Below the pieces are notes generated by a model, which searched no databases, was not told the origin of the DNA, and saw only the letters and a program-made list of their open reading frames with translations. Below, one piece after another: positions 3,793 to 44,471 of a stretch of 64,000 nt of DNA. The position numbers and the translations under genes were made by a program. Each line of letters opens with the position of its first letter. Positions within the stretch are counted from its first letter, which is position 1. The stretch is from an uncultured bacterium (GTDB lineage Bacteria; Bacillota_I; Bacilli_A; RF39; UBA660), in NCBI GenBank assembly GCA_949285875.1, contig CASDZZ010000001.1:7110-71109 (forward strand). Direction: 5' to 3'.

Positions 3793-4484
3793 GTGAAAGT
3801 GAAAAAAATATGTTTTTTTATAATTTGTTTCATTTTATTGATTCCGTTTGTTAATGCAGAGGAAAATGATAAACCAACTGATGAAATTAAAAAAGAAGAA
3901 AAAATAGAAAGTGATAAAAAAGATAGTTTATTAAATGATGGAAAAAGTGCAATTTTAATAGAAAATTCAACAGGTAAAATAATTTATGAAAAAAATTCTC
4001 ATGAAAGATTTGCTCCAGCTTCCATGACAAAAATAATGAGTATGCTTATTTTTATGGAAGAAATAGAAAAGGGTAAGTTAAAATGGAATGATACTTTAGT
4101 AACTAGTGATTATGCATCATCTATGGGGGGATCTCAGATCTTTTTACAACCTAATGAAAAAATGAGTGTTACTGATTTGTTTAAAGCAGTAGCGGTAGGT
4201 TCTGCTAATGATGCAACTATTGTCCTAGCTGAAGCAACCTATGGAACTGAAGAAAAATTTGTAAAAAGAATGAATGAAAAAGTTAAAGAATTAAATCTTA
4301 AAAATACTAATTTTAAAAATGCAGTAGGTTTAGATGAAGCTAATCATTATTCTTCAGCATATGATATGGTAATGATGGCTCGTGAATTAATTAAACATGA
4401 AAAAATTTTCGAATTTACAACCATTTATGAAGATTATCTAAGGCAAAATACTGACAATAAATTTTGGTTAGTAAATACAAATAA
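3793..4484 (+). CDS. D-alanyl-D-alanine carboxypeptidase (PBP5/DacB/DacF family), 5' segment interrupted by a mobile element
   Basis: Signal peptide. SxxK active site (ASMTKIM). The frame runs ...FWLVNTNK, then 11 element-encoded codons and a stop at 4521. The missing KTG half is found in frame at 16294..16821. Confidence 0.85.
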
Positions 4485-4505
4485 AGTCGTATTTACATTT
4501 TGCTA
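4471..4505 (+). repeat. attL (core plus element-side arm GTATTTACATTTTGCTA)
   Basis: Core 4471..4484. The element arm at 4489..4505 is the reverse complement (16/17) of the arm at 16277..16293. Confidence 0.8.
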
Positions 4506-4615
4506 TAAAACATTAATCTAGTATGTTTATAAAAAAAAGTCAATTTAAGTATTATAATAAATTGCATAAATTTATTCATGGTTATCTATACTTTATTAGA
4601 AAGTGGGGAATAACT

Positions 4616-4720
4616 ATGATTGATAATGAAATACCTAGAAAAATTCAAATTGAAATTATGAAGTTTTTTCTAAATACAAGCATACCTAGAATTTTAAAAT
4701 TAAATATCAAATCTATTTAG
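4616..4720 (+). CDS. Small hypothetical protein upstream of the recombinase (34 aa)
   Basis: ATG behind GTGGGGA. The longer 4523 start would begin at the att arm and has no RBS. Function unknown. Confidence 0.3.
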   Translation: MIDNEIPRKIQIEIMKFFLNTSIPRILKLNIKSI

Positions 4721-4741
4721 TAAATAGAGGAGATAACATTT

Positions 4742-6214
4742 ATGGAAGAAAAAATAACAACAGGAATTTATATCAGGGTTTCAACAGAGGACCAAGCAAA
4801 GGATGGATTTTCAATTCATGCTCAAAGGGAAAAATTAACTAAGTATGCAGAGGCTAATGATTGGGGAATTTATGATTACTATGTAGATGATGGAATAAGT
4901 GGTAAAAATTTAGAAGATAGACCCGAAGTATGCAGATTAATTAACGATGTGAAAGAAGGAAAAGTAAACAATATTTTAATTTACAAATTAGATAGATTAA
5001 CACGTAGCGTAAGAGACTTAATATATTTAATTGAATTGTTTGAAAAAAATGGTTGTACTTTTAATTCTCAAACAGAAAAAATTGATACCTCTAATGCTGT
5101 TGGTAGAATGTTTGTAAAGATAATTGGAATTTTCGCAGAGTTTGAAAGAGAAAATTTAGCAGAAAGAGTATCGTTTGGATATGAACAAAAAACAAGAGAG
5201 GGAAATTATACTAACACTTGTGGTGTTTATGGATACGATTATATAGCAGGAAAACAGGAATTAATTGTAAACGAAAAAGAAAAAGAAATTGTTAATAGAA
5301 TTTTTGATTTATATATTGATGGTAATTCTTATTTTAAAATAGCTCGCTTATTTAATGAAGAAGGTATACCAACTAAAAGAGGTGGTCATTGGGCAAGGAG
5401 CACAATAAAGTCCATAATAAATAATCCACTATATATTGGTAAAGTAAGATATGGATTACAACCAAAAAATAAGGATAAGTCATTTACTGTCGATGGTAAA
5501 AATATCGAACATATAATAGATGATGAAAAATGGGAATTAGCTAATAATATAATTACTACAAGAAAAAAATTTTGTGTTAGAAGATACCCAAGTGAAAATT
5601 CATATTTTTTTCATACAATAAAATGTGGAAAATGTGGTGGAAATATATCAGTTAGACAGCAAAAGCAAAATGGTAATTTATATATTACATACAAGTGTTA
5701 TAATGCGATTAGGGGTATTTGTGATTGTACTGGCTTTTCACATAAACTTATGGAAAATGCTTTTATAGAATATTTAGATACTTTTAATGACATGACTCCT
5801 GATATAAATATCATTGAAAAAAGCAATAAAATTAATGATTCTGAAAAGAAAAAAATTGAAATTAACAAAAGAATAGATAAACTTGAAGAAAAAAAGAAAG
5901 TTATCAGAAATCAATTTATTAATGATTTAATCGATGTAGAAGAATATCATAGTATGTTTAATGAAATACAAAACCAGCAGAATATACAAAAAAACAAGTT
6001 ACTAGAACTTGATGAAATTATTAATGAGAGTAAAAGAACATATAATTATGATGAAATAAAGGATATAGTAACAAATATAAAATTAAATTGGGAATATTTA
6101 ACTAATAAAGAAAAACAACAATTTTTAGAACGTTTTGTTGAGATAATTATGGTACAAAAATTTAACAAAAAAGTTATTATTAATTTAGTACAATTTAAAA
6201 ATAAATGTTGTTGA
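4742..6214 (+). CDS. Large serine recombinase (resolvase/invertase N-domain, recombinase domain, zinc ribbon, coiled coil)
   Basis: GIYIRVSTEDQ catalytic Ser motif. CGKCGG...YKCYN zinc ribbon. K/E-rich coiled-coil C-terminus. 490 aa. Confidence 0.9.
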   Translation: MEEKITTGIYIRVSTEDQAKDGFSIHAQREKLTKYAEANDWGIYDYYVDDGISGKNLEDRPEVCRLINDVKEGKVNNILIYKLDRLTRSVRDLIYLIELFEKNGCTFNSQTEKIDTSNAVGRMFVKIIGIFAEFERENLAERVSFGYEQKTREGNYTNTCGVYGYDYIAGKQELIVNEKEKEIVNRIFDLYIDGNSYFKIARLFNEEGIPTKRGGHWARSTIKSIINNPLYIGKVRYGLQPKNKDKSFTVDGKNIEHIIDDEKWELANNIITTRKKFCVRRYPSENSYFFHTIKCGKCGGNISVRQQKQNGNLYITYKCYNAIRGICDCTGFSHKLMENAFIEYLDTFNDMTPDINIIEKSNKINDSEKKKIEINKRIDKLEEKKKVIRNQFINDLIDVEEYHSMFNEIQNQQNIQKNKLLELDEIINESKRTYNYDEIKDIVTNIKLNWEYLTNKEKQQFLERFVEIIMVQKFNKKVIINLVQFKNKCC

Positions 6215-6300
6215 TAAAATAAAATATTTTAATAAGAGAGTGTAATAAAAATGTATAAGTAGTGAAACTTATACATTTTTGTTACTTAATTTATATAATA

Positions 6301-6522
6301 CTAATTTTTTTTATAGTTTTTAAAAAATTCTCTAGTAACAAAATCATAATTTTGAGCAACATAAAATAAGTTGTCCAAGGAAACGCCTGTATCAACGTTT
6401 GGACTATCTATTTGAGATATGAAACTTCTACTCATTTCACAGTCTTCGGCTAATTTTTCTTGAGAACAACCTATTTGTATATGATAATGTTTAACATTTT
6501 TAGTTAATATTTTAAGTATCAT
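6301..6522 (-). CDS. XRE-family helix-turn-helix regulator
   Basis: HTH_3-like IGCSQEKLAEDCEMSRSFISQIDS. 73 aa. Divergent from the cargo operon. Confidence 0.7.
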   Translation of the reverse strand: MILKILTKNVKHYHIQIGCSQEKLAEDCEMSRSFISQIDSPNVDTGVSLDNLFYVAQNYDFVTREFFKNYKKN

Positions 6523-6777
6523 ACAATTACCATCTAATGTTATTATGATAACTTTTTATTTTATTATTTACTACCAAGTCTATCTTACATTTATAAAGGG
6601 GATTTTTATGAAATTGAGGGCGATTATTTTGAATTTAAATATAGATTGGATAAAAACAAAAGAAAATATAATGGATGAAGTAGAAAGGATAATAGCTATT
6701 TTTTTTATAAAATTAATACAAAAATAATAAAAAAATCGGTTTTTAATGAATATTTATAAACTTTTGTAATAAAAGTA

Positions 6778-6899
6778 TTGACATTATATGGCAAATACTG
6801 TATTTTAAAAACAATTAAATCAATCTGGGTGTTGTGTTTGCTCAAATGGTGGCAGTATTTTCATGGTGGCAAACACTTATATGTTTTTGCCACCTTTTT
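6778..6899 (+). ncRNA. Candidate short transcript/leader: promoter TTGACA-17-TATTTT followed by an intrinsic terminator
   Basis: TTGACA at 6778..6783. Stem GGTGGCAAA (6865..6873) / TTTGCCACC (6886..6894) plus a T-run. A second upstream GGTGGCA copy at 6848..6854 could form an alternative pairing. Confidence 0.3.
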
Positions 6900-6951
6900 A
6901 TTATTTTTATAATAAAGGTGATTAATTTAAAATATTTAAGGAGTTGATAGT

Positions 6952-7047
6952 ATGAGAAATAAGAGTCTGCTTTCTAATAATAAAATATATTTAGCTAGTA
7001 AAGTTAGTCTAACTTTCTTATGCCTATTCTGCTTCTTAATCAAATAA
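6952..7047 (+). CDS. Small ORF, 31 aa (MRNKSLLSNNKIYLASKVSLTFLCLFCFLIK): leader peptide or small hydrophobic peptide
   Basis: Strong RBS AAGGAG 8 nt upstream. The stop is 5 nt before the terminator stem. Below the ORF-track size cutoff. Confidence 0.4.
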   Translation: MRNKSLLSNNKIYLASKVSLTFLCLFCFLIK

Positions 7048-7051
7048 CTTT

Positions 7052-7100
7052 AAGACAGTGACTTTTAAGGCCGTATGACCTTTTGAGCTGCTGTCTTTTT
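7052..7100 (+). terminator. Intrinsic terminator/attenuator immediately upstream of the rel-like RBS
   Basis: AAGACAG (7052..7058) / CTGTCTT (7091..7097) plus TTT. There is no room for a promoter before the RBS AAGGAGGTG at 7109. Confidence 0.5.
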
Positions 7101-7122
7101 GCTATATAAAGGAGGTGTTTTT

Positions 7123-8568
7123 ATGGAAAAACAAAATTTAGATATTAATGATTTGATAAGTATTATTAAATCATATAACCCAGATGAAGTTGAAAAAGTA
7201 AAAAGAGCTTATAATATGGCAAATACTCTTCATCAAGGTCAGCAAAGGCAAAGCGGAGAGCCTTACATAATCCATCCGTTAAATGTAGCTTACATATTAG
7301 CGGAATTAAGAGCGGATTCAGATACGGTATGTGCGGGTCTTTTGCATGATACTTTAGAAGATACTAATATTTCTAAAGAAGAAATTGCAGAAAACTTCAA
7401 TAGTGATGTTGCAAACTTGGTTGATGGAGTAACAAAGATAAGTAAGATGAACTTTTCATCAAAACAAGATCAGAATTTGGCTAATACAAGAAAAATAATA
7501 ACAAGTATAACAAACGATGTAAGAATTATTTTAATAAAACTAGCTGATAGGCTTCATAACATGAGGACTTTACAATTTAAAAGTGAGTTTAAACAAAAAG
7601 AAAATGCTCTAGAAACACTTGAAATATTTGTTCCTATGGCATATTACATTGGAGCATATAGAATAAAACAAGAACTAGAAGATTTATCACTTAGGTATTT
7701 AAAACCTGATATGTATAAAACAATTGGTGAAAAGAAAAAAAGGATAGAAGAAGAAAGTGCATCATGCTTAAAAGAAATGTTACAAACGATACAAAGTATG
7801 CTTAATGATGAAGCAATTCCAAATGAAATAAAGGTTAGAACAAAAAATATATATGGAATATATAAAAAGTTAAACGAAGGAGGAAAAATATCTGACATAC
7901 ATGATTTGTTAGCGCTTAAAGTAATGGTTGATACTATTAATAATTGTTATCAAACGTTAAGACTTGTTCATAGTAAATATAACCCGGTAAATGGCAAGTT
8001 TAAAGACTTTATATGCAATCCAAAAACAAATATGTATAGATCACTTCATACTACCGTATTTGCACCAGACGATAGATTAGTACAAACGCAAATAAGAACG
8101 TTTGATATGGATAAAGTAGCATCGTTTGGACTATCAACATATTGGGATATTGAAAAGGGAAATGCAAGAGAAGTGATGCAACAAGAACTAAAAGATAAAT
8201 ATCAGTTTTTTACATCACTAGTTGAAATGGACAAGGTTTTTGGAGACAATAAAGAATTTGTCTATCAAGTAAAAAATGAATTATTTTCAAACAAAATATA
8301 TGTATACACAACTAAAGGAGAAATAGTTGAATTACCGGTAGGTGCAACACCAATAGATTTTGCTTATAAAATACACACTGACATAGGGAACACCATGGTA
8401 GCTGCTATTGTAAATGATGAATATGTAGATGTTGATAAACCACTTAAGAACAAAGATAGAGTAAGAATAATAACAGATGATTTATCATTTGGACCAAGAG
8501 AAGATTGGGAAAGTAAAGCCGTTACAACGTATGCGAAAAGAAGAATAAGAGAATTTAATAAAAAATGA
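7123..8568 (+). CDS. Truncated long RelA/SpoT homolog (HD hydrolase + synthetase-like + TGS; no C-terminal ZFD/ACT domains)
   Basis: HD motifs RQSGEPYIIHP, LLHDTLEDT, DRLHNMRTL. Synthetase-region motifs RTKNIYGIYKKL, DLLALKVMV, YRSLHTTV, but QTQIRT where Rel proteins have EVQIRT. TGS region TTKGEIVELPVGATPIDFAYKIHTDIG. About 481 aa versus about 730 aa for Rel. Confidence 0.8.
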   Translation: MEKQNLDINDLISIIKSYNPDEVEKVKRAYNMANTLHQGQQRQSGEPYIIHPLNVAYILAELRADSDTVCAGLLHDTLEDTNISKEEIAENFNSDVANLVDGVTKISKMNFSSKQDQNLANTRKIITSITNDVRIILIKLADRLHNMRTLQFKSEFKQKENALETLEIFVPMAYYIGAYRIKQELEDLSLRYLKPDMYKTIGEKKKRIEEESASCLKEMLQTIQSMLNDEAIPNEIKVRTKNIYGIYKKLNEGGKISDIHDLLALKVMVDTINNCYQTLRLVHSKYNPVNGKFKDFICNPKTNMYRSLHTTVFAPDDRLVQTQIRTFDMDKVASFGLSTYWDIEKGNAREVMQQELKDKYQFFTSLVEMDKVFGDNKEFVYQVKNELFSNKIYVYTTKGEIVELPVGATPIDFAYKIHTDIGNTMVAAIVNDEYVDVDKPLKNKDRVRIITDDLSFGPREDWESKAVTTYAKRRIREFNKK

Positions 8569-8653
8569 AATTGAGTTTATAGGGATCTCGTAAAAAAAAA
8601 CTAATATCAAATGATAAGGATATCTTTTGATATCAATTTAAGGAGGTGAGATT

Positions 8654-8710
8654 ATGAGAAAATTGATGAAAAAATTCAATAGAAAATATGACATGTTATG
8701 CACTGCATAA
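8654..8710 (+). CDS. Candidate precursor peptide, 18 aa (MRKLMKKFNRKYDMLCTA)
   Basis: Near-consensus RBS AAGGAGGTGA 4 nt upstream. Followed by a perfect hairpin and then the modification-enzyme genes. Below the ORF-track cutoff. Confidence 0.5.
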   Translation: MRKLMKKFNRKYDMLCTA

Positions 8711-8726
8711 ATATCATAAATTAATT

Positions 8727-8750
8727 AAGTCATAGAATTTTCTATGACTT
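8727..8750 (+). promoter_or_regulatory. Perfect stem-loop between the peptide gene and the enzyme genes
   Basis: AAGTCATAG-AATT-CTATGACTT with no long T-run. This resembles the partial terminators seen after RiPP precursor genes. Confidence 0.5.
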
Positions 8751-8768
8751 TGATAGGAGGTTTAATAA

Positions 8769-10382
8769 ATGGAAAATATAAAGAGCAAAATTATTCCAGA
8801 AAATTTAAAAACAAATATTGATGAAGTTATGGAACAACAGTTATTTAATGCTAATAGATATTATGCGGAGTCTAATCCTGAAATAAGTAATTTAATGCAA
8901 AATGAATTACATCAAAGACCAGAGGATTTTTTACAAAAATTAATGGAAAGGTGGAATTGGCATAATACTTATTATGAATTATTATTAGAACCTGCTTTTG
9001 ATAAAATTATTAAAGAAGATTCTATAGAATTATCTCCAGAAGAAATAAATGATATTATAAAAATATATTCTACATCGTGTTTGGTTGATGAGGCAACACT
9101 TGTGATGTCAGGTGTAATAAAGAAATATTTGGAACATAATTATCCAAATATTAACGTAACGGATGAGAATATTCCATTAAGCAAGGCAAATATAATGCTG
9201 ATTACCCCACCAATAGAAACCTTTTTTGCTCAATATCAAATTGACCATTTATATTATATATATCTACTTAAAACTAAAGATGCTGATACATCTAAGTTTA
9301 AAGAATATTTATTAAAAAAATATCATGCTTGTGATGAAAAAATATTTTTGTCTAGATTTACAAGAAAATTCGGTAACAAATTACAAATGTCAGAAAGAGA
9401 AATTTTAGAAGAAATTAGACATTATAAAATATCTGAGTCATATAAAACACAACATTTTTATTTCACATTAGAACATAGTGATAGAAAAGCTATTAGAGAT
9501 ATAATTATTTATGATAACTTAGATGAAAAATTAATAGCATCAAATTTAATTGGAGTTTCAGGATTCTTATTTAGAAGAAAGGTTTTAGAATATTTAAATA
9601 ATAGTGGTATTTTAAGAAATAATGGTTATATATATGAATTTAATAATGATGTAATTATAAATTCATTAGAAATGTTAAAAAATGAAAGGGAAATCAAAAT
9701 GGATAAAAATGTTAGACCATACAAACAAAAAGGAGATACCTGTGCTATCGTTTGTATGATGATGGTGTTAGAATATTATAAAGTAATAGAAAAAGCAAAT
9801 TGGTATGATGAAAGAAGACTATATAAAATATATGGTTCAGAATATATGAATGGAACTCCATTTTCAGCATTAGCATTTCATATGGCAAAAAATGGTTTGA
9901 ATGTTACTATGTATCATGAAAATAAAGATTTGTTTGAAAATAGTCATAATGTTCTTAGAAATGAAGATTTTGAATTTGCAATGAATGAATATAAAGAGTA
10001 TTTAGGCTACGCTAAAAACAAGGGAGTAAAGGTTTTAAATGGAACCCCAATAAATACGGATGTATTAAAGCGAAAATTACAAGATGGTAATTTAGTTATA
10101 TTAGCCGGCGAAATATTTGAAGTATATCATGCAATATTACTTACAGGTTATGATGAAAATGGATTTATAGTTTGTGACCCTTTATATAAAACAAAGCAAA
10201 CAAGGACCTTTGAAGAAATAGAAAGCTTTATGAATACAAGTATTGGGAAATGGTTTATCACAGTTAATGATAAAACAAAAGAGAAAGAAAAATTAATATC
10301 TAATTTAGATAAATTTACCGAAGAAGCAAAAGATTTTATGACTAAAAAAGAGGATAGGAGTCTTCGTCATGTTAAAAAATGA
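8769..10382 (+). CDS. Two-domain protein: unknown N-terminal about 310 aa + papain-like cysteine peptidase (C39-like) domain
   Basis: QKGDTCAIVCMMMVLEYY (Cys) and YHAILLTGYDENGFIVCDP (His) are spaced as in Peptidase_C39-like domains. RBS AGGAGG. Confidence 0.6.
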   Translation: MENIKSKIIPENLKTNIDEVMEQQLFNANRYYAESNPEISNLMQNELHQRPEDFLQKLMERWNWHNTYYELLLEPAFDKIIKEDSIELSPEEINDIIKIYSTSCLVDEATLVMSGVIKKYLEHNYPNINVTDENIPLSKANIMLITPPIETFFAQYQIDHLYYIYLLKTKDADTSKFKEYLLKKYHACDEKIFLSRFTRKFGNKLQMSEREILEEIRHYKISESYKTQHFYFTLEHSDRKAIRDIIIYDNLDEKLIASNLIGVSGFLFRRKVLEYLNNSGILRNNGYIYEFNNDVIINSLEMLKNEREIKMDKNVRPYKQKGDTCAIVCMMMVLEYYKVIEKANWYDERRLYKIYGSEYMNGTPFSALAFHMAKNGLNVTMYHENKDLFENSHNVLRNEDFEFAMNEYKEYLGYAKNKGVKVLNGTPINTDVLKRKLQDGNLVILAGEIFEVYHAILLTGYDENGFIVCDPLYKTKQTRTFEEIESFMNTSIGKWFITVNDKTKEKEKLISNLDKFTEEAKDFMTKKEDRSLRHVKK

Positions 10383-10704
10383 GTATTTATTTTATAGCGA
10401 TTATTTTAAAAAAAGAAATATTAAGAATAAATCAATCATGGTTGCGAAAACTAAAGAATCATATTTAATTGGTCCAATAATAAACTCTGATTTTGATGAA
10501 CAATCATTTTATAAAAGAATTAAATCAAATAGTATATATACAACTAAAATATATAAAAGAATGTTTAGAAATAAATGTAATTTATTAATTAATAAATATA
10601 AAAAAAATTTAAAAAACAATCAAATAATTGAAGTTTACAAAAATGGTGAAATAGTTTTACATTCAATTTTAAAAGTTCCAGGTGAAGATGATGAAAAAAA
10701 ATAA
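10369..10704 (+). CDS. Small basic protein, 111 aa, translationally coupled to the flanking genes (possible YcaO partner/peptide-recognition protein)
   Basis: RBS GGATAGGAG. Overlaps the upstream gene by 14 nt and the YcaO start region. No motif recognised. Confidence 0.5.
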   Translation: MLKNEYLFYSDYFKKRNIKNKSIMVAKTKESYLIGPIINSDFDEQSFYKRIKSNSIYTTKIYKRMFRNKCNLLINKYKKNLKNNQIIEVYKNGEIVLHSILKVPGEDDEKK

Positions 10705-11968
10705 GTTGATATTAAATAGACAAGAAATTATAGATATTTTAGGAAAAGAATATAAAAGTTTAGCAAATATATTTAGTGATAAAGTTGGGATAGTAAATGC
10801 CATGTTAGAAAGGCACGAATTAGATAAATATGACCTTTTTATGTATCAATGTTTGAGTGCCAATGTTACTAAACTATTTGATTTAAACAGAGAAGTTTCA
10901 AGTGGTGGTCTTGGAGTTCATGAAGATAAAAAAACTGCAATGATAAGTTGTTTAGCAGAAGCTTTAGAAAGATATTGCATGTCTTTTATTCCTAAAGGAG
11001 ATTTAATTATTTGTAGAAAAAGAGATTTAAATAATAAATATGTATTTCAATCTTTTTATACTTATAACAAAAATCAATATAATCGAAATAAAAATTTTCT
11101 AGATCCTAATAATGATATTATTGAATGGACAAAAATAATTAGTGTAAATAATAAAAATAATTTTAAATATTGGCCAGCAAGTTTAATATATTTACCATAT
11201 GAAGTAAATTCAGTTGTGGCAGAGACCACGTCAACTGGTATGGCGGCAGGTTTTGATATAAATGAGTGTGTTGAAAGTGGATTAATGGAATTAATTGAAA
11301 GAGATAGTTTAATGATTAATTTTATGCAAAGATTAAATCCTCCAGAAATTAATTTAGATACAATTAGTGGCATAAATCAAAAACTTATTTTAACAATAAA
11401 AAAGGAATATAATATAAAAATATATCAATTATATTCTGATATAGATGTACCAATTTATCTTTCTATAATTTATAAGGGAAATAATAAAGATACGCATTAT
11501 GGTATTGGAGCCTGCGCAAATGTTGATTCAGATTACGCAATTAATAAGTCCTTAAAAGAATGTTTATTTACATATTTTTATTCTTTGAATATAATGGATG
11601 CGAAGGTAGAAAATCCTAATAATATTAAAGCTTTGTATGAACATTTTCTATATTACCAAGGAAACAATTTTAAAGATTTATTATTTGATAGTAAAATTAT
11701 TAAATATGAAAGAAAGAAAACCTCATTAAAAAAAGTGATTGAAAACTTAAAATCTAAAAATATTGATGTATTCTATAAAGAATTAACAACAGATGATATT
11801 AAAGCGACAAAAATAAGAGTATTAAAGGTAATTGCTCCAGGGCTTATAGATATGCATAAAAGTCATATATTACCACGTTTGGGAGCTGAAAGATATTGGA
11901 GTGTTCCTCAAAAATTAGGTTTAAAGTATTTTAAAAAATTATGTGATAAGCCACACCCTTTTCCTTAA
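10688..11968 (+). CDS. YcaO-domain protein (ATP-dependent peptide backbone amide activation / cyclodehydratase family)
   Basis: SSGGLGVHEDKKTAMISCLAEALERYC, ELIERDS, and a proline-rich C-terminus ending PHPFP. Confidence 0.85.
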   Translation: MMKKNKLILNRQEIIDILGKEYKSLANIFSDKVGIVNAMLERHELDKYDLFMYQCLSANVTKLFDLNREVSSGGLGVHEDKKTAMISCLAEALERYCMSFIPKGDLIICRKRDLNNKYVFQSFYTYNKNQYNRNKNFLDPNNDIIEWTKIISVNNKNNFKYWPASLIYLPYEVNSVVAETTSTGMAAGFDINECVESGLMELIERDSLMINFMQRLNPPEINLDTISGINQKLILTIKKEYNIKIYQLYSDIDVPIYLSIIYKGNNKDTHYGIGACANVDSDYAINKSLKECLFTYFYSLNIMDAKVENPNNIKALYEHFLYYQGNNFKDLLFDSKIIKYERKKTSLKKVIENLKSKNIDVFYKELTTDDIKATKIRVLKVIAPGLIDMHKSHILPRLGAERYWSVPQKLGLKYFKKLCDKPHPFP

Positions 11969-11989
11969 TTATTTGTGAGGTGTTTGAAA

Positions 11990-12955
11990 ATGAAAAAAGA
12001 AATATTAACAAACTTATTTGCCGATTTATTAAATGTTATTGATAAAAATGAAATAAATGAAATTAAATTAAAAATTGATTTAAATGATAACAATATTTAT
12101 TCGATACTTGATAAAATTTGTTTGTATTTTTACACATTGTATAATGATAGTGCAATAACTATAGAAAAATACAATATGATATTAAATACTATCAATAAAT
12201 ATTATAACAAGAGTGCTGATTATATTTATAATAGGATAGATTGGATTACTGAAGCCTATTTAAGTAATCCTAAAATTTCTTTAGATTACCATCATCAACA
12301 GTTATTATCATATTTTAAAAAAATAAATATTATTTTGAATAAATATAAAATTGATTATTTTCATGCAAGTGGATTTATAGGGTATATATTATCAGATAAG
12401 AAATTAGAAAGATTTCATCATGATATTGACTTGTATGTAAATGAAAAATGTTTGAATGATTTAATTGATGGCTTTTTAAAAGAAAATTTCGATATTATTT
12501 ATACTCATGAAAAATACAAAGAAAATTTATTTAGACATGGTTTTAAAATAAAAAGTAATGATGTAGATATTCCTATATGGTTATCTTTTTATGAGTGTCT
12601 TTCGAATGGCGCAATATATGTTAAAGAGTACTACGAAGACAAAGATAAAAATCAAATTACAAAAAGGAATTATAATACACCTTTATGCACATTATTGAGT
12701 TTAACTGATGGCAACTATAATGGTATAAAGTTTAAATCCATGAGTTTAGAGGCACTTTATTGTAGTAAAAATGGTAATCGAAAAAAAGATATTTATGACT
12801 GTAAAGTTATAAAAGAGTTAATGGATATGAATAAAGCTGAAATGCTAAAACAGGAATTGATATACGAATGGGAAATACTAAATTATATACCTACTTCGGT
12901 TACAGATGCAATCAATAAAATTACTCGTGGAAAGGAGTTGGCGTATCATAAATAA
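11990..12955 (+). CDS. Pol-beta-fold nucleotidyltransferase (Lnu/ANT(2'')-like) with an N-terminal helical extension
   Basis: HASGFIGYILSDKKLERFHHDIDLYV resembles the GGWAxD...RxHxDIDI nucleotidyltransferase motif. RBS GTGAGGTG. Confidence 0.55.
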   Translation: MKKEILTNLFADLLNVIDKNEINEIKLKIDLNDNNIYSILDKICLYFYTLYNDSAITIEKYNMILNTINKYYNKSADYIYNRIDWITEAYLSNPKISLDYHHQQLLSYFKKINIILNKYKIDYFHASGFIGYILSDKKLERFHHDIDLYVNEKCLNDLIDGFLKENFDIIYTHEKYKENLFRHGFKIKSNDVDIPIWLSFYECLSNGAIYVKEYYEDKDKNQITKRNYNTPLCTLLSLTDGNYNGIKFKSMSLEALYCSKNGNRKKDIYDCKVIKELMDMNKAEMLKQELIYEWEILNYIPTSVTDAINKITRGKELAYHK

Positions 12956-13823
12956 ATTACCAAAAAATGAATATAGAATTTCAATAATATCAGCATGCAA
13001 TATGAGATGCGTATATTGTCACAATGAAGGTAATAAAAAAAATAGCAAACTAAGCGTAAATGATATTAGGTGCATTGTTGAAAATTCGAAAGGATTAAAC
13101 TTAACTAATATGAGATTGACGGGTGGAGAGCCGCTGTTACATCCTGATATTTATAAAATATGTAAAATGCTTTCAGAAGAATATAATCTTAAAGTGGGTA
13201 TTAATACTAATTGTATTGAAATTGATAAAATTATTTATATGATAAAAAAAGGTTGGATTGATAGGGTAATTGTAGGATTAGACTATTTTGATGGGGTTGT
13301 ATCAAAGCAATCGCCAGTAGGAAAAACCTCAAAGGAGATTTTATCTAATATATTAAAAATAAAAAGGCTAGGGTGTAATGTCTCAATTTCAACTGTATAT
13401 AATAATAATTATGACAATATATTTAAATTAGTTGGTTGGTGTGTTAATAATAAAATAAGAATTAAAATTATAGAATTAATAAAAAATGAAATACATGAAA
13501 GTTCTGATTTAAATTATATAAAAATGAGAGATTCAATTATTAAAGATTATAAATTTAAAGTTAAGATTGATGAGTTAGAAGAGTACAATTGTTATATAGA
13601 TAATTTTAATGTGGTCTCTTTTTTTCCGTCATTATGTAGATTAAGAAGATGTGATATATGTAAAAAAATACATCTTAGAATTACAAGTGAAGGTAATATA
13701 AAACAATGTATTCATTATGAAAATAATGATAAAAGTGTAATAGGAAAAAATAGTAGATTAAATATACTAGAAGAAATAAATCGTGATGTTGATTATCATT
13801 ATGAGGTAAAAAATGAAGTATAA
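12906..13823 (+). CDS. Radical SAM enzyme, MoaA-like (twitch-type C-terminal Cys cluster)
   Basis: CNMRCVYC (CxxxCxxC), LTGGEPLLHPD, C-terminal CDICKKIHLRITSEGNIKQC resembling MoaA CxxC..RLTADGKL..C. Lacks the MoaA C-terminal GG. The start is uncertain (12906 ATG overlaps the upstream gene by 50 nt). Confidence 0.8.
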   Translation: MQSIKLLVERSWRIINKLPKNEYRISIISACNMRCVYCHNEGNKKNSKLSVNDIRCIVENSKGLNLTNMRLTGGEPLLHPDIYKICKMLSEEYNLKVGINTNCIEIDKIIYMIKKGWIDRVIVGLDYFDGVVSKQSPVGKTSKEILSNILKIKRLGCNVSISTVYNNNYDNIFKLVGWCVNNKIRIKIIELIKNEIHESSDLNYIKMRDSIIKDYKFKVKIDELEEYNCYIDNFNVVSFFPSLCRLRRCDICKKIHLRITSEGNIKQCIHYENNDKSVIGKNSRLNILEEINRDVDYHYEVKNEV

Positions 13824-14172
13824 AGTATTTTGCCATGGTTTTTTACGAAATAAAAATAGAATTTTATATTTAAAAAGAGAAAAAGATAAAATATATCCAT
13901 GTAAATGGGATTTGCCAGGTGGATTTTGTGAGTCGAATGAAACGTTTGAAGATTGCATTGTGAGAGAATTTAAGGAAGAAACCAACTTAGATATATCTGT
14001 TATAGATTTGATTGATTTAAAATGCCAAATTTATAATAATGAAATTATAATTGTTCTTTTATTTGCTGTTAAGTTAAAATCCAAAAGAAAGATTAACTTG
14101 AATTTTGAACATACAGATTATGAGTATTTAGACTGTTTAAATGGTAAAGATGTTATATGGTATTTAAAATAA
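13813..14172 (+). CDS. Nudix hydrolase
   Basis: Nudix box GFCESNETFEDCIVREFKEETN. Overlaps the radical SAM gene by 11 nt. Confidence 0.85.
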   Translation: MKYKVFCHGFLRNKNRILYLKREKDKIYPCKWDLPGGFCESNETFEDCIVREFKEETNLDISVIDLIDLKCQIYNNEIIIVLLFAVKLKSKRKINLNFEHTDYEYLDCLNGKDVIWYLK

Positions 14173-14189
14173 TTATAGGGGGGTATAGT

Positions 14190-14828
14190 ATGATTAATTA
14201 TTTATTTAGCGGTATTAACTCTGAAAAAGGTTTTACAAAAGAGCAATCTAAATATTTAAAAAAAGATATTAAAAATAACTCAAATATAGTTTTTATTGCT
14301 AGTGTATTTAGTGATTATAAGAAAAATGATGAGTTATTTGAAAGCTATATAAAATGTTTCAGAAACAACAATATTAAATTTAGAAAATCAAGTATTATTG
14401 ATGATAGAATTTCTATTACTTTAGCGCATAAATTAATTAAAGATGCTGATATAATATTCTTACTTGGTGGGAATCCAGAAATGCAAATGAGATCAATTAA
14501 TCAGTATGCTTTAAGAAAGTACATAAAAAAAGTGAATATAGTAATCGGTGTTAGTGCTGGTTCCATGAATCAGTCAAAAAGAGTAATGTACAAAAATGAT
14601 TTTGAAAATTTTGTAATGAAAGATTATGAGGGCCTTGGTTTGGTAACAATAAATATTTTTCCTCACGTAGATTTGAATAATCGAACCATTATTAAAGAAG
14701 TAATGGAAATTAGTGATTATTTACCACTTGTTTTATTACCAAATGATTCTTTTATAAGAATTTCTAATAAAGTTGAATATTTTGGAAAATATTATTTTAT
14801 AAAAAATAGAGAAATTATCAGTAACTAA
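14190..14828 (+). CDS. Peptidase S51 family (dipeptidase E / cyanophycinase-like)
   Basis: ADIIFLLGGNP, nucleophile motif GVSAGSMN, IFPH. Start at the ATG behind AGGGGGG. Confidence 0.75.
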   Translation: MINYLFSGINSEKGFTKEQSKYLKKDIKNNSNIVFIASVFSDYKKNDELFESYIKCFRNNNIKFRKSSIIDDRISITLAHKLIKDADIIFLLGGNPEMQMRSINQYALRKYIKKVNIVIGVSAGSMNQSKRVMYKNDFENFVMKDYEGLGLVTINIFPHVDLNNRTIIKEVMEISDYLPLVLLPNDSFIRISNKVEYFGKYYFIKNREIISN

Positions 14829-15103
14829 AAATCTAGCTTTAAATTAATGCTATATATCTAAATATGATAATAATAATGGGATCTATTTTTTAAAAATTAT
14901 ATAAGCTATAATTGAATTAATATAGTTTTATTAAGAATAATATAAGATTAATTGTATAATTGTAAATGATGTATAATGATAAATTAAAGCATATATAATA
15001 ATTTTGCTCATTAAATGAATATAAAAGCAAAGCCATCTAATTTCAGATTAGCCTTGCTTTTTAAATATTTAAAAAAATTTATTTTTCTTTTTCAATGGTA
15101 ACT

Positions 15104-15295
15104 TTATATCCATATTTTTTTTGCTATTCTCATTAAGGTTTCAAAAGTATATCTTCTTGTTCCTCTTTCATAGCTTTGAATTGCCATGTCACTTAAACCT
15201 ATACTTTTTCCAAAGTCAGGTTGACTTTTATCTGACCATTCTCTTAAAATTTTAATTACTTCTTTTTCTTTATAATCATTTGCAACAATTCTCAT
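15104..15295 (-). CDS. Small HTH regulator (XRE-like), paralog 1
   Basis: 63 aa, about 70% identical to the neighbour. Has an A8 run where the paralog has A6, which changes the C-terminal tail. Confidence 0.6.
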   Translation of the reverse strand: MRIVANDYKEKEVIKILREWSDKSQPDFGKSIGLSDMAIQSYERGTRRYTFETLMRIAKKIWI

Positions 15296-15307
15296 TTTAT
15301 GAACTCC

Positions 15308-15586
15308 TTATGAATCTACAATACTAAAAAAAATTAATATTAAGTCCTTTTCCATACGTAGAGTATGTGCATCATTCATCTTTTTCGATTGTAATTTTAT
15401 ATCCATATTTTTTGCTATTCTTATTAATGTGTCAAAAGTGTATTTTCTTGTTCCTCTTTCATAGCTTTGGATTGTCATGCCACTAAAACCTATACTTTTT
15501 CCAAATTCTGGTTGTTTTAAATTTGTCCATTCGCGTAATATTTTTATTACGTCTTTAGATTCATAGTCATTTGCGATTATCTTCAT
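15308..15586 (-). CDS. Small HTH regulator (XRE-like), paralog 2
   Basis: Start at MKIIANDY behind AAGGAGGGGAG. QPEFGKSIGFSGMTIQSYERGTR HTH. Confidence 0.6.
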   Translation of the reverse strand: MKIIANDYESKDVIKILREWTNLKQPEFGKSIGFSGMTIQSYERGTRKYTFDTLIRIAKNMDIKLQSKKMNDAHTLRMEKDLILIFFSIVDS

Positions 15587-15706
15587 ATATGCTCCCCTCC
15601 TTGACAAACATACTCTAAGTATGTATAATTTTATTAAAATCCATACATCGCGTATGCTTAGACGTGTTAATTAACCAAAATATATGATTTTATAGGAAGT
15701 GGAGTC

Positions 15707-16189
15707 ATGAACAAGGAATTAGAATGGCATAATATAAAAATAAAAATCAAAGATATAGCAACAAAATACATTCAATATTGTTTATTGATAGATATTAATT
15801 CTACTTCAAAAATTTCTAAAGATTATACTTTGGAAATATTAGATATTAATGATATAAATAATTACACTAGGCTCAATAACATAGAATTAGAAAAACGAGT
15901 TAATAAAATAAACTCGTTTAGAATCGCATTTAATAAGTTGACAACAGAAGAAAGAAAAATAATATATTGGACTTATTTGGATAAGATAATTATGAAAGAA
16001 ACGTATAAAAAGTTATATACTCTTTTAAATACAATATTAAGTGACATTGAAAAGAGAGTAATAGAAATGATATATGGAATAAAGGGTAAACAGTACAAAC
16101 AAATTGAAATTTCAGATATTCTCAATATCCGCAGTATAAAGTTTCAAGAATTAAAAAAAAGCTTTAAAACAATTAAAATGTTATATTAA
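15707..16189 (+). CDS. Sigma-70 region-4-like / ArpU-like putative transcription factor
   Basis: TTEERKIIYWTYLDK and LSDIEKRVIEMIYG...QIEISDILNIRSIKFQELKK resemble region 4 HTH segments. Last gene before attR. Confidence 0.4.
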   Translation: MNKELEWHNIKIKIKDIATKYIQYCLLIDINSTSKISKDYTLEILDINDINNYTRLNNIELEKRVNKINSFRIAFNKLTTEERKIIYWTYLDKIIMKETYKKLYTLLNTILSDIEKRVIEMIYGIKGKQYKQIEISDILNIRSIKFQELKKSFKTIKMLY

Positions 16190-16276
16190 TGATACGATTT
16201 AAAAAAATTTTTTTAATATATATCAAAAATTGTATTTAAATGTTATAATAAAGGTACTTGTTAGATTTGATATTTA

Positions 16277-16307
16277 AATTTTTATAGTAAAATGTAAATA
16301 CAAATAA
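16277..16307 (+). repeat. attR (element-side arm TAGTAAAATGTAAATAC overlapping the core)
   Basis: Joining the two ends gives attP = TAGTAAAATGTAAATAC-AAATAAAGTC-GTATTTACATTTTGCTA, with a central non-palindromic AA. Confidence 0.8.
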
Positions 16308-16821
16308 GCTCATTAAAACTTATGAAGGCGCTGATGGGTTAAAAACAGGATATACTAGTGAGGCTGGTTACTGTTTAACAGCAACAGCTAAAAAAAATAA
16401 CATGAGATTAATAGGTACTGTTATGGGGGCTAGTGATAGTAAATCTAGAAATAGTGTGATGACAACCTTATTAAATTATGGGTATAATATGTATGAAATG
16501 CAAGTTGAAATAGAAGAAGGAAAAACGGTTGTGAAGAAAAATTCTCCTAAAGCCCTAAATGAAGAAATTTTAATTGTGCCTAAAACTGATGCAAGTGTAT
16601 TAGTAGAAAAAGGAAATGAAAAGGAAGCTTTAAATTATGAAGTTAAAATTGATAGGTTGAAGTTACCTATAAAAAAGGGCGAAAATGTTGGTACGCTTTT
16701 CTTAAAAGAAGGAAAAAAAGTTGTTAGTAAAGTTCCTTTAACGGTAAGCTGTGATGTAGAAAAAGCAGATATTTTAACGCTTTATAAAAGAAATATAAAG
16801 AAAATATTAAGTGGTGTATAA
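16294..16821 (+). CDS. D-alanyl-D-alanine carboxypeptidase, 3' segment (continues 3793..4484)
   Basis: In-frame VNTNKLIKTYEGADGLKTGYTSEAGYCLTATAKK (KTG motif) and a PBP5 C-terminal domain. A stop codon lies immediately upstream at 16288. Confidence 0.85.
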   Translation, partial: VNTNKLIKTYEGADGLKTGYTSEAGYCLTATAKKNNMRLIGTVMGASDSKSRNSVMTTLLNYGYNMYEMQVEIEEGKTVVKKNSPKALNEEILIVPKTDASVLVEKGNEKEALNYEVKIDRLKLPIKKGENVGTLFLKEGKKVVSKVPLTVSCDVEKADILTLYKRNIKKILSGV

Positions 16822-43712: not shown

Positions 43713-44471
43713 ATGAAGGCACTTTTTCTAACAAGTTCTTTAAGTACTAATATAAAGGATGAAAACAATAATAAAATTCCGATAAAATTTGAAAATACTA
43801 ATATGATTTTAGATAATTTTAAAAAGTATATAAAAAAGTATGATAATTTTTTATATATAGCTAGTAATCCGAATGATAACTTAGTAACTGACTTATATTC
43901 GGATGTTGTGTTTAAATCTTTTGATTTAACTTTACCTTTTAGAAGTTATAAAGTTTTAGATAATAGAAATATTAATGATGCAGATAAGCTGGTTTCAGAA
44001 GCAGATTTTATTTATTTAGCTGGTGGACATGTTCCTACTCAAAATAAATTCTTTAATGATATTAATTTGAAAGATTTATTAGCTAAAAATGATGATGTAG
44101 TAATATGTGGTGTGTCTGCGGGAAGTATGAACTGTTCTTTTAATGTTTATTCTCCTCCTGAAGAAGAAGGTGAGGCAAAAGATAAGAATTATAATAAATA
44201 TCTAAAAGGGTTAGAACTTACTAAAATAAGTATATATCCTCATTATAATGAGGATGAGGTAATCATACTAGATAATTTGGATATGAAAAATGATATACTA
44301 CTTATAGACAGTAATAAAAGGCCTTTTTTTGCATATCCTGATGGAACTTATATTTTAAAGACAAATGCTGCTGTTAAATTATATGGTTTATCATATCGAT
44401 TTGAAAATGGTAAATATTATAAATTTAGTGATGATTTAGAGGCTAAAGATATAAAAAAATATGATATGTAA
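43713..44471 (+). CDS. Peptidase S51 family protein
   Basis: ADFIYLAGGH, GVSAGSMN, IYPH. Paralogous architecture to 14190..14828. Confidence 0.7.
   Translation: MKALFLTSSLSTNIKDENNNKIPIKFENTNMILDNFKKYIKKYDNFLYIASNPNDNLVTDLYSDVVFKSFDLTLPFRSYKVLDNRNINDADKLVSEADFIYLAGGHVPTQNKFFNDINLKDLLAKNDDVVICGVSAGSMNCSFNVYSPPEEEGEAKDKNYNKYLKGLELTKISIYPHYNEDEVIILDNLDMKNDILLIDSNKRPFFAYPDGTYILKTNAAVKLYGLSYRFENGKYYKFSDDLEAKDIKKYDM

Follow-up and report, generated by a model that had tools for sequence, protein, structure and literature searches.

What could be made by an operon that joins an 18-aa peptide to a YcaO enzyme, two peptidases and several enzymes of nucleotide chemistry? The question is raised by eight genes lying between positions 8654 and 14828 of the stretch of DNA analysed here, 64,000 nucleotides of contig CASDZZ010000001.1 from an uncultured bacterium (the window). 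We suggest that these genes encode a previously undescribed YcaO-dependent pathway of the type that makes ribosomally synthesized peptides with post-translational modifications (RiPPs), in which the 18-aa peptide is either the substrate or a reusable scaffold. We judge this proposal to be about evenly balanced between right and wrong, and our confidence in any specific chemistry for the distal, tail genes is much lower. The features of the operon are these.

8654-8710, forward strand: open reading frame (ORF) for the 18-aa peptide MRKLMKKFNRKYDMLCTA, from the ORF list, with AAGGAGG 7 nt 5' of its ATG
8727-8750, forward strand: hairpin 3' of the peptide stop codon, with a 10-bp stem and a 4-nt loop
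8769-10382, forward strand: 537-aa protein with a helical domain and a C39 peptidase domain (Pfam, structure model)
10369-10704, forward strand: 111-aa basic protein (isoelectric point 9.7), translationally coupled on both sides
10682-11968, forward strand: YcaO (Pfam/NCBIfam, motifs)
11975-12955, forward strand: divergent nucleotidyltransferase-like protein of 326 aa, long form (motif, relatives)
12906-13823, forward strand: MoaA-like radical SAM enzyme (Pfam/NCBIfam, auxiliary-cluster motif)
13813-14172, forward strand: MutT-like Nudix hydrolase (Pfam/NCBIfam, PADLOC)
14157-14828, forward strand: S51 (PepE-like) serine peptidase (Pfam/NCBIfam)

An initial annotation of the window had named these eight ORFs, a near-consensus ribosome-binding site ahead of the first and a perfect hairpin behind it, together with the domain calls, and all were recovered where it had placed them. 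Its description of head-to-tail packing with gaps of at most 20 nt holds for a tight operon, except that the spacer between the peptide gene and the 537-aa gene is 58 nt long and contains the hairpin. On the longest-ORF reading, the 326-aa gene and the radical SAM gene share 50 nt.

Related loci were gathered by a YcaO homologue search with contig reading, by a scan of one genome per species and by a metagenome scan with the 537-aa family. The peptide, the 537-aa protein, the 111-aa protein and the YcaO occur together, in synteny, in 38 non-redundant YcaO loci, so that the set is co-conserved and not the chance juxtaposition that the initial annotation had considered. The order of this four-gene core is shared across loci and differs in a lineage of 38-41% GC. 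As hosts we find uncultured gut Bacilli whose chromosomes measure about 1.2-1.5 Mb and whose records bear the labels 'Mycoplasma sp. CAG:472/776', 'Tenericutes' or 'Bacilli bacterium'; we take this group to be RF39 in GTDB terms. Taxonomic labels here are those of the deposited records of metagenome-assembled genomes (MAGs). The lineage of 38-41% GC is represented by Joint Genome Institute (JGI) environmental contigs (L066, L067, L072 and L079), which carry the four-gene core and no Shine-Dalgarno sequences; judged by its GC content and these absent sequences alone, it may be Bacteroidota-like.

It is the peptide itself that speaks most directly to the question. The Bacilli peptide is always 18 residues long and follows the pattern M[RK][RK][LI][ML][RK]KF[NDE][RK]K[YFCLM]D[ML][LMI][CS]T[AGVS], with MRKLMKKFNRKYDMLCTA as the consensus. 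Over the loci as a whole the peptide stays near-identical while its enzymes drop to 33-53% identity. K7, F8, K11, D13 and T17 are invariant in 27 genes; synonymous codons vary at F8, K11, D13 and T17 (all four Thr codons are used for Thr17, GAC and GAT for Asp13), Cys16 is written as both TGC and TGT, and K7 is always AAA. The ratio of nonsynonymous to synonymous differences (pN/pS) in the peptide ORF is 0.215 at a pS of 0.58. Because of this ratio, and because codons vary beneath invariant residues, the peptide ORF is under purifying selection and is selected as a protein, and with its strong ribosome-binding site it is evidently translated; the conserved upstream peptide ending in CTA, for which the initial annotation had looked, is a real feature of these loci.

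The last three residues are [CS]-T-[AGVS] in all loci, and the peptide gene adjoins the YcaO core, as does the precursor of a thiazole/oxazole-modified microcin (TOMM) or linear azol(in)e-containing peptide (LAP). Position 16 is Cys in every locus but one, L031, which has Ser (...MLSTV), the other residue that a cyclodehydratase can use, and because of this restriction position 16 appears to behave like a cyclisation nucleophile. Clostridia-labelled MAGs carry the peptide as M[KR]KLF[KR]KFNKKFDLLCTA beside a 537-aa protein that is 45-51% identical. The lineage of 38-41% GC has a 17-aa peptide, MKFIKKFDKKYDLLCT[A/S], persisting as MKFIKKFDKKYDLLCTA, so that the peptide sequence is kept where identity is 33% for the 537-aa protein and 53% for the YcaO. 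There the peptide gene lies between the 537-aa and 111-aa genes, with a promoter-like signal of its own and a terminator-like hairpin after it. A gene that shifts its place in the operon yet retains its sequence would not be expected of a cis-acting leader, which argues that the peptide acts in trans, as substrate or product.

Those observations bear on a different proposal, in which the 18-aa ORF would regulate in cis, as a leader or arrest peptide, and the target of the YcaO would be a cellular protein. Escherichia coli YcaO acts on ribosomal protein uL16 and a methanogen YcaO on McrA. YcaOs acting on protein substrates are a reality (PMC13063428); the conservation of the whole peptide, including the last residues before the stop, is also what is seen in arrest peptides, and the operon has no recognised E1-like partner or RiPP recognition element (RRE). 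Set against this are the differing position of the peptide gene between lineages, the Cys-to-Ser exchange as the sole change at position 16, and a YcaO that is SagD/cyanobactin-like, with the PxPxP tail, and not TfuA-associated. The hairpin also speaks against it: one follows the peptide stop codon in 30 of 30 loci examined, with many unrelated stem sequences, and it ends before the ribosome-binding site of the next gene, which is not sequestered. We consider a leader or arrest peptide improbable; the peptide-then-hairpin layout fits what is usual for RiPP precursor genes.

The proteins encoded beside the peptide are in keeping with the RiPP-type proposal to differing degrees. The YcaO (Pfam YcaO, E 2e-40) has the SagD-type TIGR03604 as its best model, at a score under the cut-off. 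The EALERY motif and PHPFP tail for which the initial annotation made the call, together with ELIERD, are invariant in 16 orthologues; the ATP/Mg ligands E93/E96/R97 and E203/E206/R207/D208 (ExxER, ExxERD) and the PHPFP tail do not vary in the distant lineage either. Among solved structures, the azoline-forming MusD, TruD and LynD lie nearest to it. Given the retained ExxER, ExxERD and PxPxP motifs, the SagD-type best model and these relatives, the YcaO looks like an active azoline former. No E1-like, ocin-ThiF-like or RRE partner was recognised by Pfam, NCBIfam, PDB profiles or Foldseek on the operon proteins, and no SagB-type dehydrogenase dependent on flavin mononucleotide (FMN) was found in the operon proteins, the scanned proteins of the surrounding element or the related loci. 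The initial annotation had listed the SagB dehydrogenase, TfuA, E1-like partner and transporter as absent, and none was recognised in the operon; nor was a characterised cluster found that matches the set, in line with its statement that no described class does.

The C39-like domain that had been claimed at the end of the 537-aa protein is matched by Peptidase_C39_2 (E 3e-10, residues 314-471). A structure model of the whole protein (predicted local distance difference test score, pLDDT, of 92) places a papain-like C39 domain at residues 310-523, which Foldseek matches to 3erv and to the leader-peptidase domains of ComA and PCAT1 (probability 1.0, TM-scores of 0.5-0.75 on the target); Cys325, His454 and Asp470 are invariant. 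With a fold that matches leader-peptidase domains and an unvarying Cys/His/Asp triad, the protease domain appears to be active. An all-helical domain rich in invariant polar residues makes up residues 1-309, with the stretches RWNWHNxYYExLLEPA, VDxATL, QYxxDH, YHAxDExIF and YDNxxEK, and this density suggests a catalytic or tight binding site instead of a spacer. Pfam, NCBIfam, a PDB sequence-profile search and a Foldseek search of the 537-aa model gave no match for the helical domain.

Stand-alone C39 paralogues, about 195 aa long and with as much as 71% identity to the 537-aa protein's C39 domain, were also seen in related bacteria at loci that have no YcaO (L061, L062, L065, L068, L069, L071, L073, L074 and L076); in L071 and L073 the gene directly adjoins a Rel/SpoT gene.

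The 111-aa protein has an AlphaFold2 model (pLDDT 84.5) with the order strand-helix-strand-strand-helix-helix-strand-strand. It had no Pfam or NCBIfam match, the PDB profile search returned only noise, and the best Foldseek match had an E of 0.9; ThiF aligns to the model at a TM-score of 0.39, which is not significant. With no significant Foldseek match, the idea that it is an RRE or an E1 remnant was rejected. It is possibly a cryptic, highly divergent peptide-binding fold, and its family is small (106 clusters in 5.8 billion).

The genes present and their shared order, the selection acting on the peptide, the unbroken catalytic motifs and the mobile element described below are observed; from this arrangement we infer a substrate relationship, an azoline, a cleavage and a tail chemistry that would run as follows. 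The basic N-terminal two-thirds of the peptide (MRKLMKKFNRKYD) would serve as a recognition handle, to which the 111-aa protein, the 537-aa protein's helical domain, or both would probably bind. The YcaO would use ATP to activate the carbonyl of Leu15, phosphorylating the hemiorthoamide formed by attack of Cys16 and so giving a thiazoline; Thr17 may likewise form a methyloxazoline. The ring would stay an azoline because no dehydrogenase is present. The C39 domain would cut the peptide, and additional exopeptidase-like hydrolases would trim or release the C-terminal fragment. This may then gain a nucleotide- or pyrimidine-derived group, or have one processed, through the nucleotidyltransferase-like protein together with the variable tail (in the window the MoaA-like radical SAM enzyme, Nudix and S51 proteins, in 15 of 32 loci ThiE). 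Because the whole peptide is near-invariant across phyla, a product that meets some conserved partner in the cell (a signal, for instance, a cofactor-like molecule or the ligand of a conserved machine) seems to us likelier than a fast-evolving antibiotic.

Several points weigh against this proposal. The link between peptide and YcaO is one that we infer, and no E1-like, ThiF-like or RRE partner, which most azoline-forming YcaOs need, was recognised in the operon. The peptide has no Gly-Gly site of the type cut by classical C39 domains, the operon holds no exporter or immunity gene, and conservation of an entire peptide is atypical of RiPP antibiotics. The SagD-model score of the YcaO is below the curated cut-off (193 vs 219 bits), and the proposal does not explain what the nucleotidyltransferase-like protein, ThiE, the radical SAM enzyme or the Nudix protein do.

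Comparison with known systems places the pathway near several of them. It shares with TOMMs (streptolysin S SagBCD) and with the cyanobactin enzymes LynD, TruD and MusD a short precursor with Cys/Ser-Thr residues cyclisable by a YcaO, intact ATP motifs, the PxPxP tail, a SagD-type best model and a cysteine protease in the cluster. It differs from them in having no E1-like or ocin-ThiF partner, recognisable RRE, FMN dehydrogenase or exporter; in having at most 1-2 cyclisable residues, at the extreme C-terminus; and in a precursor that is near-invariant across phyla instead of hypervariable, with two partners of unmatched folds. Judged on its genes, then, the pathway resembles a YcaO RiPP but falls outside TOMMs on partner protein and dehydrogenase.

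Bottromycin is made with a stand-alone YcaO that has no E1-like partner and closes one thiazoline ring on a Cys toward the C-terminal end of a short core; trimming falls to separate hydrolases. Our locus resembles it in its hydrolases, its YcaO lacking an E1-like partner and a Cys close to the C-terminus of the peptide, a likeness that goes with no demonstrated kinship closer than the superfamily; the follower peptide, second YcaO, radical SAM methyltransferases and P450 of bottromycin are all absent. In the pathways to pyrroloquinoline quinone (PQQ), mycofactocin and pearlin/3-thiaglutamate, a small conserved peptide is modified C-terminally and peptidases release a small product. The likeness there lies in the conserved peptide, the dedicated peptidases and a conserved, largely chromosomal distribution; the differences are that a YcaO stands here in place of radical SAM/SPASM enzymes with an RRE or tRNA-dependent ligases, and that the entire peptide is conserved, not a C-terminal motif alone.

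The genes that follow the YcaO vary, and they bear on what the peptide may be joined to. Tails were counted in 32 of the 38 non-redundant loci, those with enough downstream DNA.

15 of 32 loci: short-form 326-aa family coupled to ThiE
8 of 32 loci, including the window: long-form 326-aa family with a MoaA-like radical SAM enzyme, with or without Nudix and S51
2 of 32 loci: 326-aa homologue only
7 of 32 loci: no such tail genes

The window's set of eight genes joins one tail, out of two or more alternatives, to the conserved core. What the initial annotation had treated as a unit of eight genes thus stands for the four-gene core, whereas the radical SAM-Nudix-S51 tail occurs in just 8 of the 32 informative loci. 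On a neighbour-joining tree of the YcaO, for which no support values were computed, loci with ThiE and with radical SAM tails interleave. In the distant lineage, an S33/S9-like alpha/beta hydrolase follows the YcaO.

The 326-aa family has an invariant nucleotidyltransferase motif, SG-x12-HHDxD, and gives sub-threshold NTP_transf_5 or ANT(2'') matches in 6 of 16 orthologues and 7 of 10 distant relatives; in one distant relative the ANT(2'') match exceeds the gathering score. For the protein of the window no Pfam or NCBIfam match reached threshold and the PDB profile search gave only noise, and the family is rare, with 68 relatives among 1.84 billion representatives. The Lnu/ANT-like identity proposed by the initial annotation is therefore plausible on its invariant motif, with family scores below formal thresholds, and we call the protein a putative nucleotidyltransferase.

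The radical SAM enzyme (Radical_SAM, E 1e-20) has MoaA as its best named models (110-118 bits vs cut-offs of 231-325). The MoaA-like call made earlier rested on CNMRCVYC and a C-terminal Cys cluster, with the reservation that the terminal Gly-Gly is missing, and all of this is seen: the family shares with MoaA, a GTP 3',8-cyclase, the CxxxCxxC motif, a conserved C-terminal CxxC-x15-19-C auxiliary-cluster motif and an LR[ILV]xSxG motif (LRxT/S-x-G context). Unlike MoaA, it scores well under the cut-offs, ends without Gly-Gly (...EVKNEV in the window), has no molybdopterin (moa) genes nearby and is present in a quarter of loci.

The Nudix and S51 calls hold as well. The Nudix protein (NUDIX, E 5e-16) has PRK08999, a Nudix-ThiE-like fusion family, as its best NCBIfam model, and the S51 peptidase (Peptidase_S51, E 1e-16) occurs in the tails of the window and L006. 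Related tails hold further arrangements.

L018, 13135-14175: Nudix-S51 fusion
L028, 5658-6614: Nudix-C39 fusion, the C39 part being a paralogue of the C-terminal domain of the 537-aa protein
L031, 13304-14278: S66 LdcA/MccF-family peptidase in place of Nudix/S51
L032, 4872-6044: CMP-kinase/NadR-like protein after the nucleotidyltransferase-like gene

The fusions to S51 in L018 and to C39 in L028 point to a functional tie between the Nudix protein and peptide hydrolysis, and the repeated presence of further hydrolases in the tails is in keeping with the RiPP-type proposal. An S51-Nudix pairing also recurs outside the operon: at 43713-44471 and 44602-45423 of the window a second, chromosomal S51 peptidase gene adjoins one for an ASCH-Nudix protein, with ABC transporters on either side.

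It is here that a peptide-nucleotide conjugate, either a Trojan horse like microcin C or a nucleotide-tagged signal, has to be weighed. The nucleotidyltransferase-like protein would add a nucleoside monophosphate to the hydroxyl of Thr17 or to the C-terminus, the radical SAM enzyme would remodel the purine nucleotide, and the Nudix protein with the S51, S66 and C39 hydrolases would process the product or protect the producer. A nucleotidyltransferase-like gene does follow the YcaO in 25 of the 32 informative loci, Thr17 is invariant and the MoaA-like auxiliary-cluster motif is conserved, and the Nudix-peptidase fusions, the S66 LdcA/MccF-family replacement in L031 and the CMP-kinase/NadR-like protein in L032 would all find a place in such a scheme. 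Microcin C itself is also a very short basic ribosomal peptide; a suspected nucleotide-transferring enzyme and the S66 family of the L031 tail add to the likeness. Yet the operon has no MccB or other E1-type adenylyltransferase (no ThiF/E1 domain by Pfam or NCBIfam), no C-terminal Asn, the peptide ending in Ala, Ser, Gly or Val, and no exporter; a YcaO is present and the nucleotide genes are optional. Because seven loci have the core without the nucleotidyltransferase or tail, nucleotide chemistry is not essential to the core. The nucleotidyltransferase assignment is sub-threshold, and an invariant peptide is unlike the molecules of warfare. We regard a conjugate of this kind as unlikely.

The more frequent tail raises a second possibility. 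In the relatives that carry it, ThiE scores 206 bits against a cut-off of 145 for TIGR00693 and is a genuine thiamine-phosphate synthase; its gene overlaps the nucleotidyltransferase-like gene by 4-20 nt and closes the operon (L008 9998-11507, L010 11293-12779, L035 12189-13755, L036 12183-13755 and 11 others), the genes after it varying. YcaO chemistry makes thiazolines, and ThiE alkylates a thiazole nitrogen. A thiazol(in)e fragment of the peptide, or the sulfur of Cys16, could thus feed a ThiE condensation that gives thiamine phosphate or a thiamine-like thiazolium, with the radical SAM/Nudix tail as an alternative ending. The translational coupling of a genuine ThiE in 15 of 32 loci, found also in divergent Clostridia-labelled loci that have no Rel/SpoT, the thiazole chemistry common to YcaO and ThiE, the interleaving of the two tails and the Cys-rich leader ORFs ahead of the operon (see below) are all consistent with such a link, as is the apparent isolation of ThiE from ordinary thiamine genes: Rfam detected no thiamine pyrophosphate (TPP) riboswitch in 7 related loci, and no thiM or thiD was recognised beside ThiE, where most downstream ORFs were unscanned, so that these are not formally excluded. 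Chemistry stands in the way. A Cys-derived thiazoline is substituted at C2 and C4, the thiazole of thiamine carries 4-methyl and 5-hydroxyethyl groups and a free C2, and because the substitution patterns differ the peptide thiazoline cannot be the normal ThiE substrate; direct formation of the thiamine thiazole from Cys-Thr was rejected for the same misfit. The window operon has no ThiE and does not otherwise look like a thiamine operon, seven loci have no tail, and ThiE could be merely a co-transcribed salvage gene. A thiamine-linked pathway seems to us improbable.

A bolder version of the RiPP-type proposal would draw on both tails. The peptide would be the precursor or scaffold of a conserved small molecule, not of an antibiotic; its C-terminal thiazol(in)e fragment, made by the YcaO and freed by the peptidases, would be joined to a nucleotide or pyrimidine moiety by the nucleotidyltransferase-like protein acting either with ThiE (hydroxymethylpyrimidine, HMP, onto the thiazole nitrogen, giving a thiamine-like thiazolium) or with the radical SAM and Nudix enzymes (a GTP-derived moiety). 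We hold this to be distinctly unlikely; if true, it would amount to a new family of peptide-derived cofactors or signals common to unrelated anaerobes.

The operon of the window lies within an insertion whose features are listed here.

4485-16307: 11.8-kb integrative element carrying the operon and the Rel/SpoT gene
4471-4484: left 14-bp direct repeat GTAAATACAAATAA at the element junction
16294-16307: right copy of the 14-bp direct repeat GTAAATACAAATAA
4489-4516 and 16274-16301: 28-nt inverted repeat flanking the insert
4742-6214, forward strand: large serine recombinase (Resolvase, Recombinase and Zn_ribbon_recom), just inside the left end
3793-4521 and 16402-16821: split D-Ala-D-Ala carboxypeptidase, S11 N-terminal part and PBP5_C C-terminal part

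Deletion of 4485-16307 in silico yields an intact 401-aa S11 carboxypeptidase ORF. The direct repeat, the ORF restored on excision, the inverted repeat and the serine recombinase at the left end together show that an 11.8-kb integrative element carries the operon and the Rel/SpoT gene as cargo; the element's GC content (25%) equals that of the flanks and host. The claim that the operon travels on a mobile element holds in the window, but in other loci the module sits in the chromosome, its surroundings varied and often made up of housekeeping genes, and no recombinase gene adjoins it. Neither plasmids nor phages gave a Megablast match to 8600-14900, and no relative of the YcaO turned up when IMG/VR viral contigs were scanned.

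The right end of the element also holds tandem paralogous helix-turn-helix-like genes on the reverse strand (15104-15295 and 15308-15607, 182 nt at 82% identity) and, at 15707-16189 on the forward strand, a small protein resembling sigma-70 region 4. Rfam detected no riboswitch or known RNA in the element and 7 related loci, returning one tRNA and one chance snoRNA match, and a scan for promoter and terminator consensus was uninformative at 25% GC (68 promoter-like sites vs 66 expected). Aminoacyl-tRNA synthetase genes near L004, L006, L037 and L079 were considered as a resistance hallmark and dropped, as they were not above chance frequency.

The mobile setting is what recommends the initial annotation's other suggestion, a nucleotide-signalling system of anti-phage defence or conflict, along with PADLOC matches of the radical SAM enzyme to pVip (weak, E 3e-12, 44 bits) and of the Nudix protein to PDC-S07; the Rel/SpoT protein matches PDC-S33. 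These similarities are generic. PADLOC has no match for the YcaO, the 537-aa, 111-aa and 326-aa proteins or the S51 peptidase and calls no system; the radical SAM enzyme, which resembles MoaA and has its auxiliary-cluster motif, reaches 38 bits against a viperin NCBIfam cut-off of 180; and loci exist that do without the nucleotide genes. With most copies chromosomal among housekeeping genes and no phage, plasmid or viral-contig relatives found, we think a conflict system highly improbable.

The Rel/SpoT gene and the signals ahead of the operon remain to be placed.

6952-7047, forward strand: 31-aa Cys-containing leader ORF MRNKSLLSNNKIYLASKVSLTFLCLFCFLIK, upstream of Rel/SpoT
7052-7100, forward strand: terminator hairpin and T-run, beginning 5 nt past the stop codon of the leader and lying directly ahead of the Rel/SpoT ribosome-binding site
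7123-8568, forward strand: Rel/SpoT homologue (HD, RelA_SpoT and TGS domains), ending after the TGS domain
8573-8589, forward strand: conserved 17-nt element GAGTTTATAGGGATCTC (GAGTTTATAGNGANCTC), then an A-run AAAAAAACTA to about 8605, between the Rel/SpoT stop and the peptide ribosome-binding site

Rel/SpoT probably starts at ATG 7123 and not at TTG 7099, since AGGAGG precedes the former and the latter falls in the terminator T-run. The gene precedes the peptide gene in 22 of 31 informative loci and is absent from the divergent lineages. Gln329 (numbered from TTG 7099) stands at the catalytic synthetase Glu, E324 of Bacillus subtilis Rel, and Gln is found there in 40 of 40 copies; the E324V exchange inactivates the B. 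subtilis Rel synthetase (PMC7098656). The HD hydrolase motifs are intact, and the C-terminus corresponds to about residue 483 of the aligned B. subtilis Rel, with no later regulatory domains, so that the protein is probably a hydrolase-only, C-terminally truncated RelA/SpoT homologue of the lineage. The initial annotation had read its adjacency as a sign of nucleotide chemistry. That reading, and with it a role as an integral pathway enzyme, was abandoned: the gene is missing from divergent loci, occurs without a YcaO (L071, L073) and has the synthetase Glu replaced. We read it as a syntenic neighbour.

Leader ORFs like that of the window, 25-48 aa long and not conserved in sequence, occur in 16 loci (L001, L006, L009-L015, L018, L020, L023, L027, L029, L031 and the window) and are rich in Cys, at 5.4% vs a background of 1.22% (p = 3e-12). 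Each ends at or within the 5' arm of a strong terminator ahead of the Rel/SpoT ribosome-binding site. A ribosome that read the leader through to its end would disrupt the terminator, and the pair looks like a candidate leader-peptide attenuator that reads Cys codons. The 17-nt element occurs exactly once in each of the 24 fetched loci holding it, always upstream of the peptide gene and 25-70 nt 5' of its ribosome-binding site, and is found also in L004 and L037, which have no Rel/SpoT; it has no Rfam match and could be a promoter, an operator or an mRNA-processing site. Farther upstream, at 6778-6899, a promoter-like TTGACA-17-TATTTT is followed about 60 nt on by a GC-rich hairpin (GGTGGCAAA...TTTGCCACC) with a T-run, and a second GGTGGCA copy lies 17 nt upstream; the region could be a small RNA or an extra attenuator ahead of the leader ORF.

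The searchable literature did not yield the peptide sequence, any work on YcaO and RF39, on YcaO with a nucleotidyltransferase, Nudix or radical SAM enzyme, or on RF39 and RiPPs, or any relevant work combining YcaO with ThiE or ppGpp; a 2015 survey of TOMMs makes no mention of Mycoplasma, Tenericutes, nucleotidyl or thiamin. For the 111-aa protein, the 326-aa protein and the helical domain there is no model in Pfam, NCBIfam, PADLOC or Rfam.

If the peptide is the substrate of the YcaO, the operon would define a new RiPP-type family with a 17-18-residue precursor that is near-unchanged between low-GC gut Bacilli and a lineage of 38-41% GC, and a YcaO that works without any known partner protein and alongside two new folds or domains. 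The interchangeable tail would, if this is true, link peptide chemistry to ThiE or to MoaA-like and Nudix nucleotide enzymes, and the system could prove categorically new should its product be a peptide-derived cofactor or a nucleotide or thiamine hybrid. With four to eight genes it is a compact test case for a new partner logic in YcaO enzymes, small enough to synthesise and express. A peptide so conserved points to a molecule of physiological importance for gut bacteria of a major group that is uncultured and has very small genomes.

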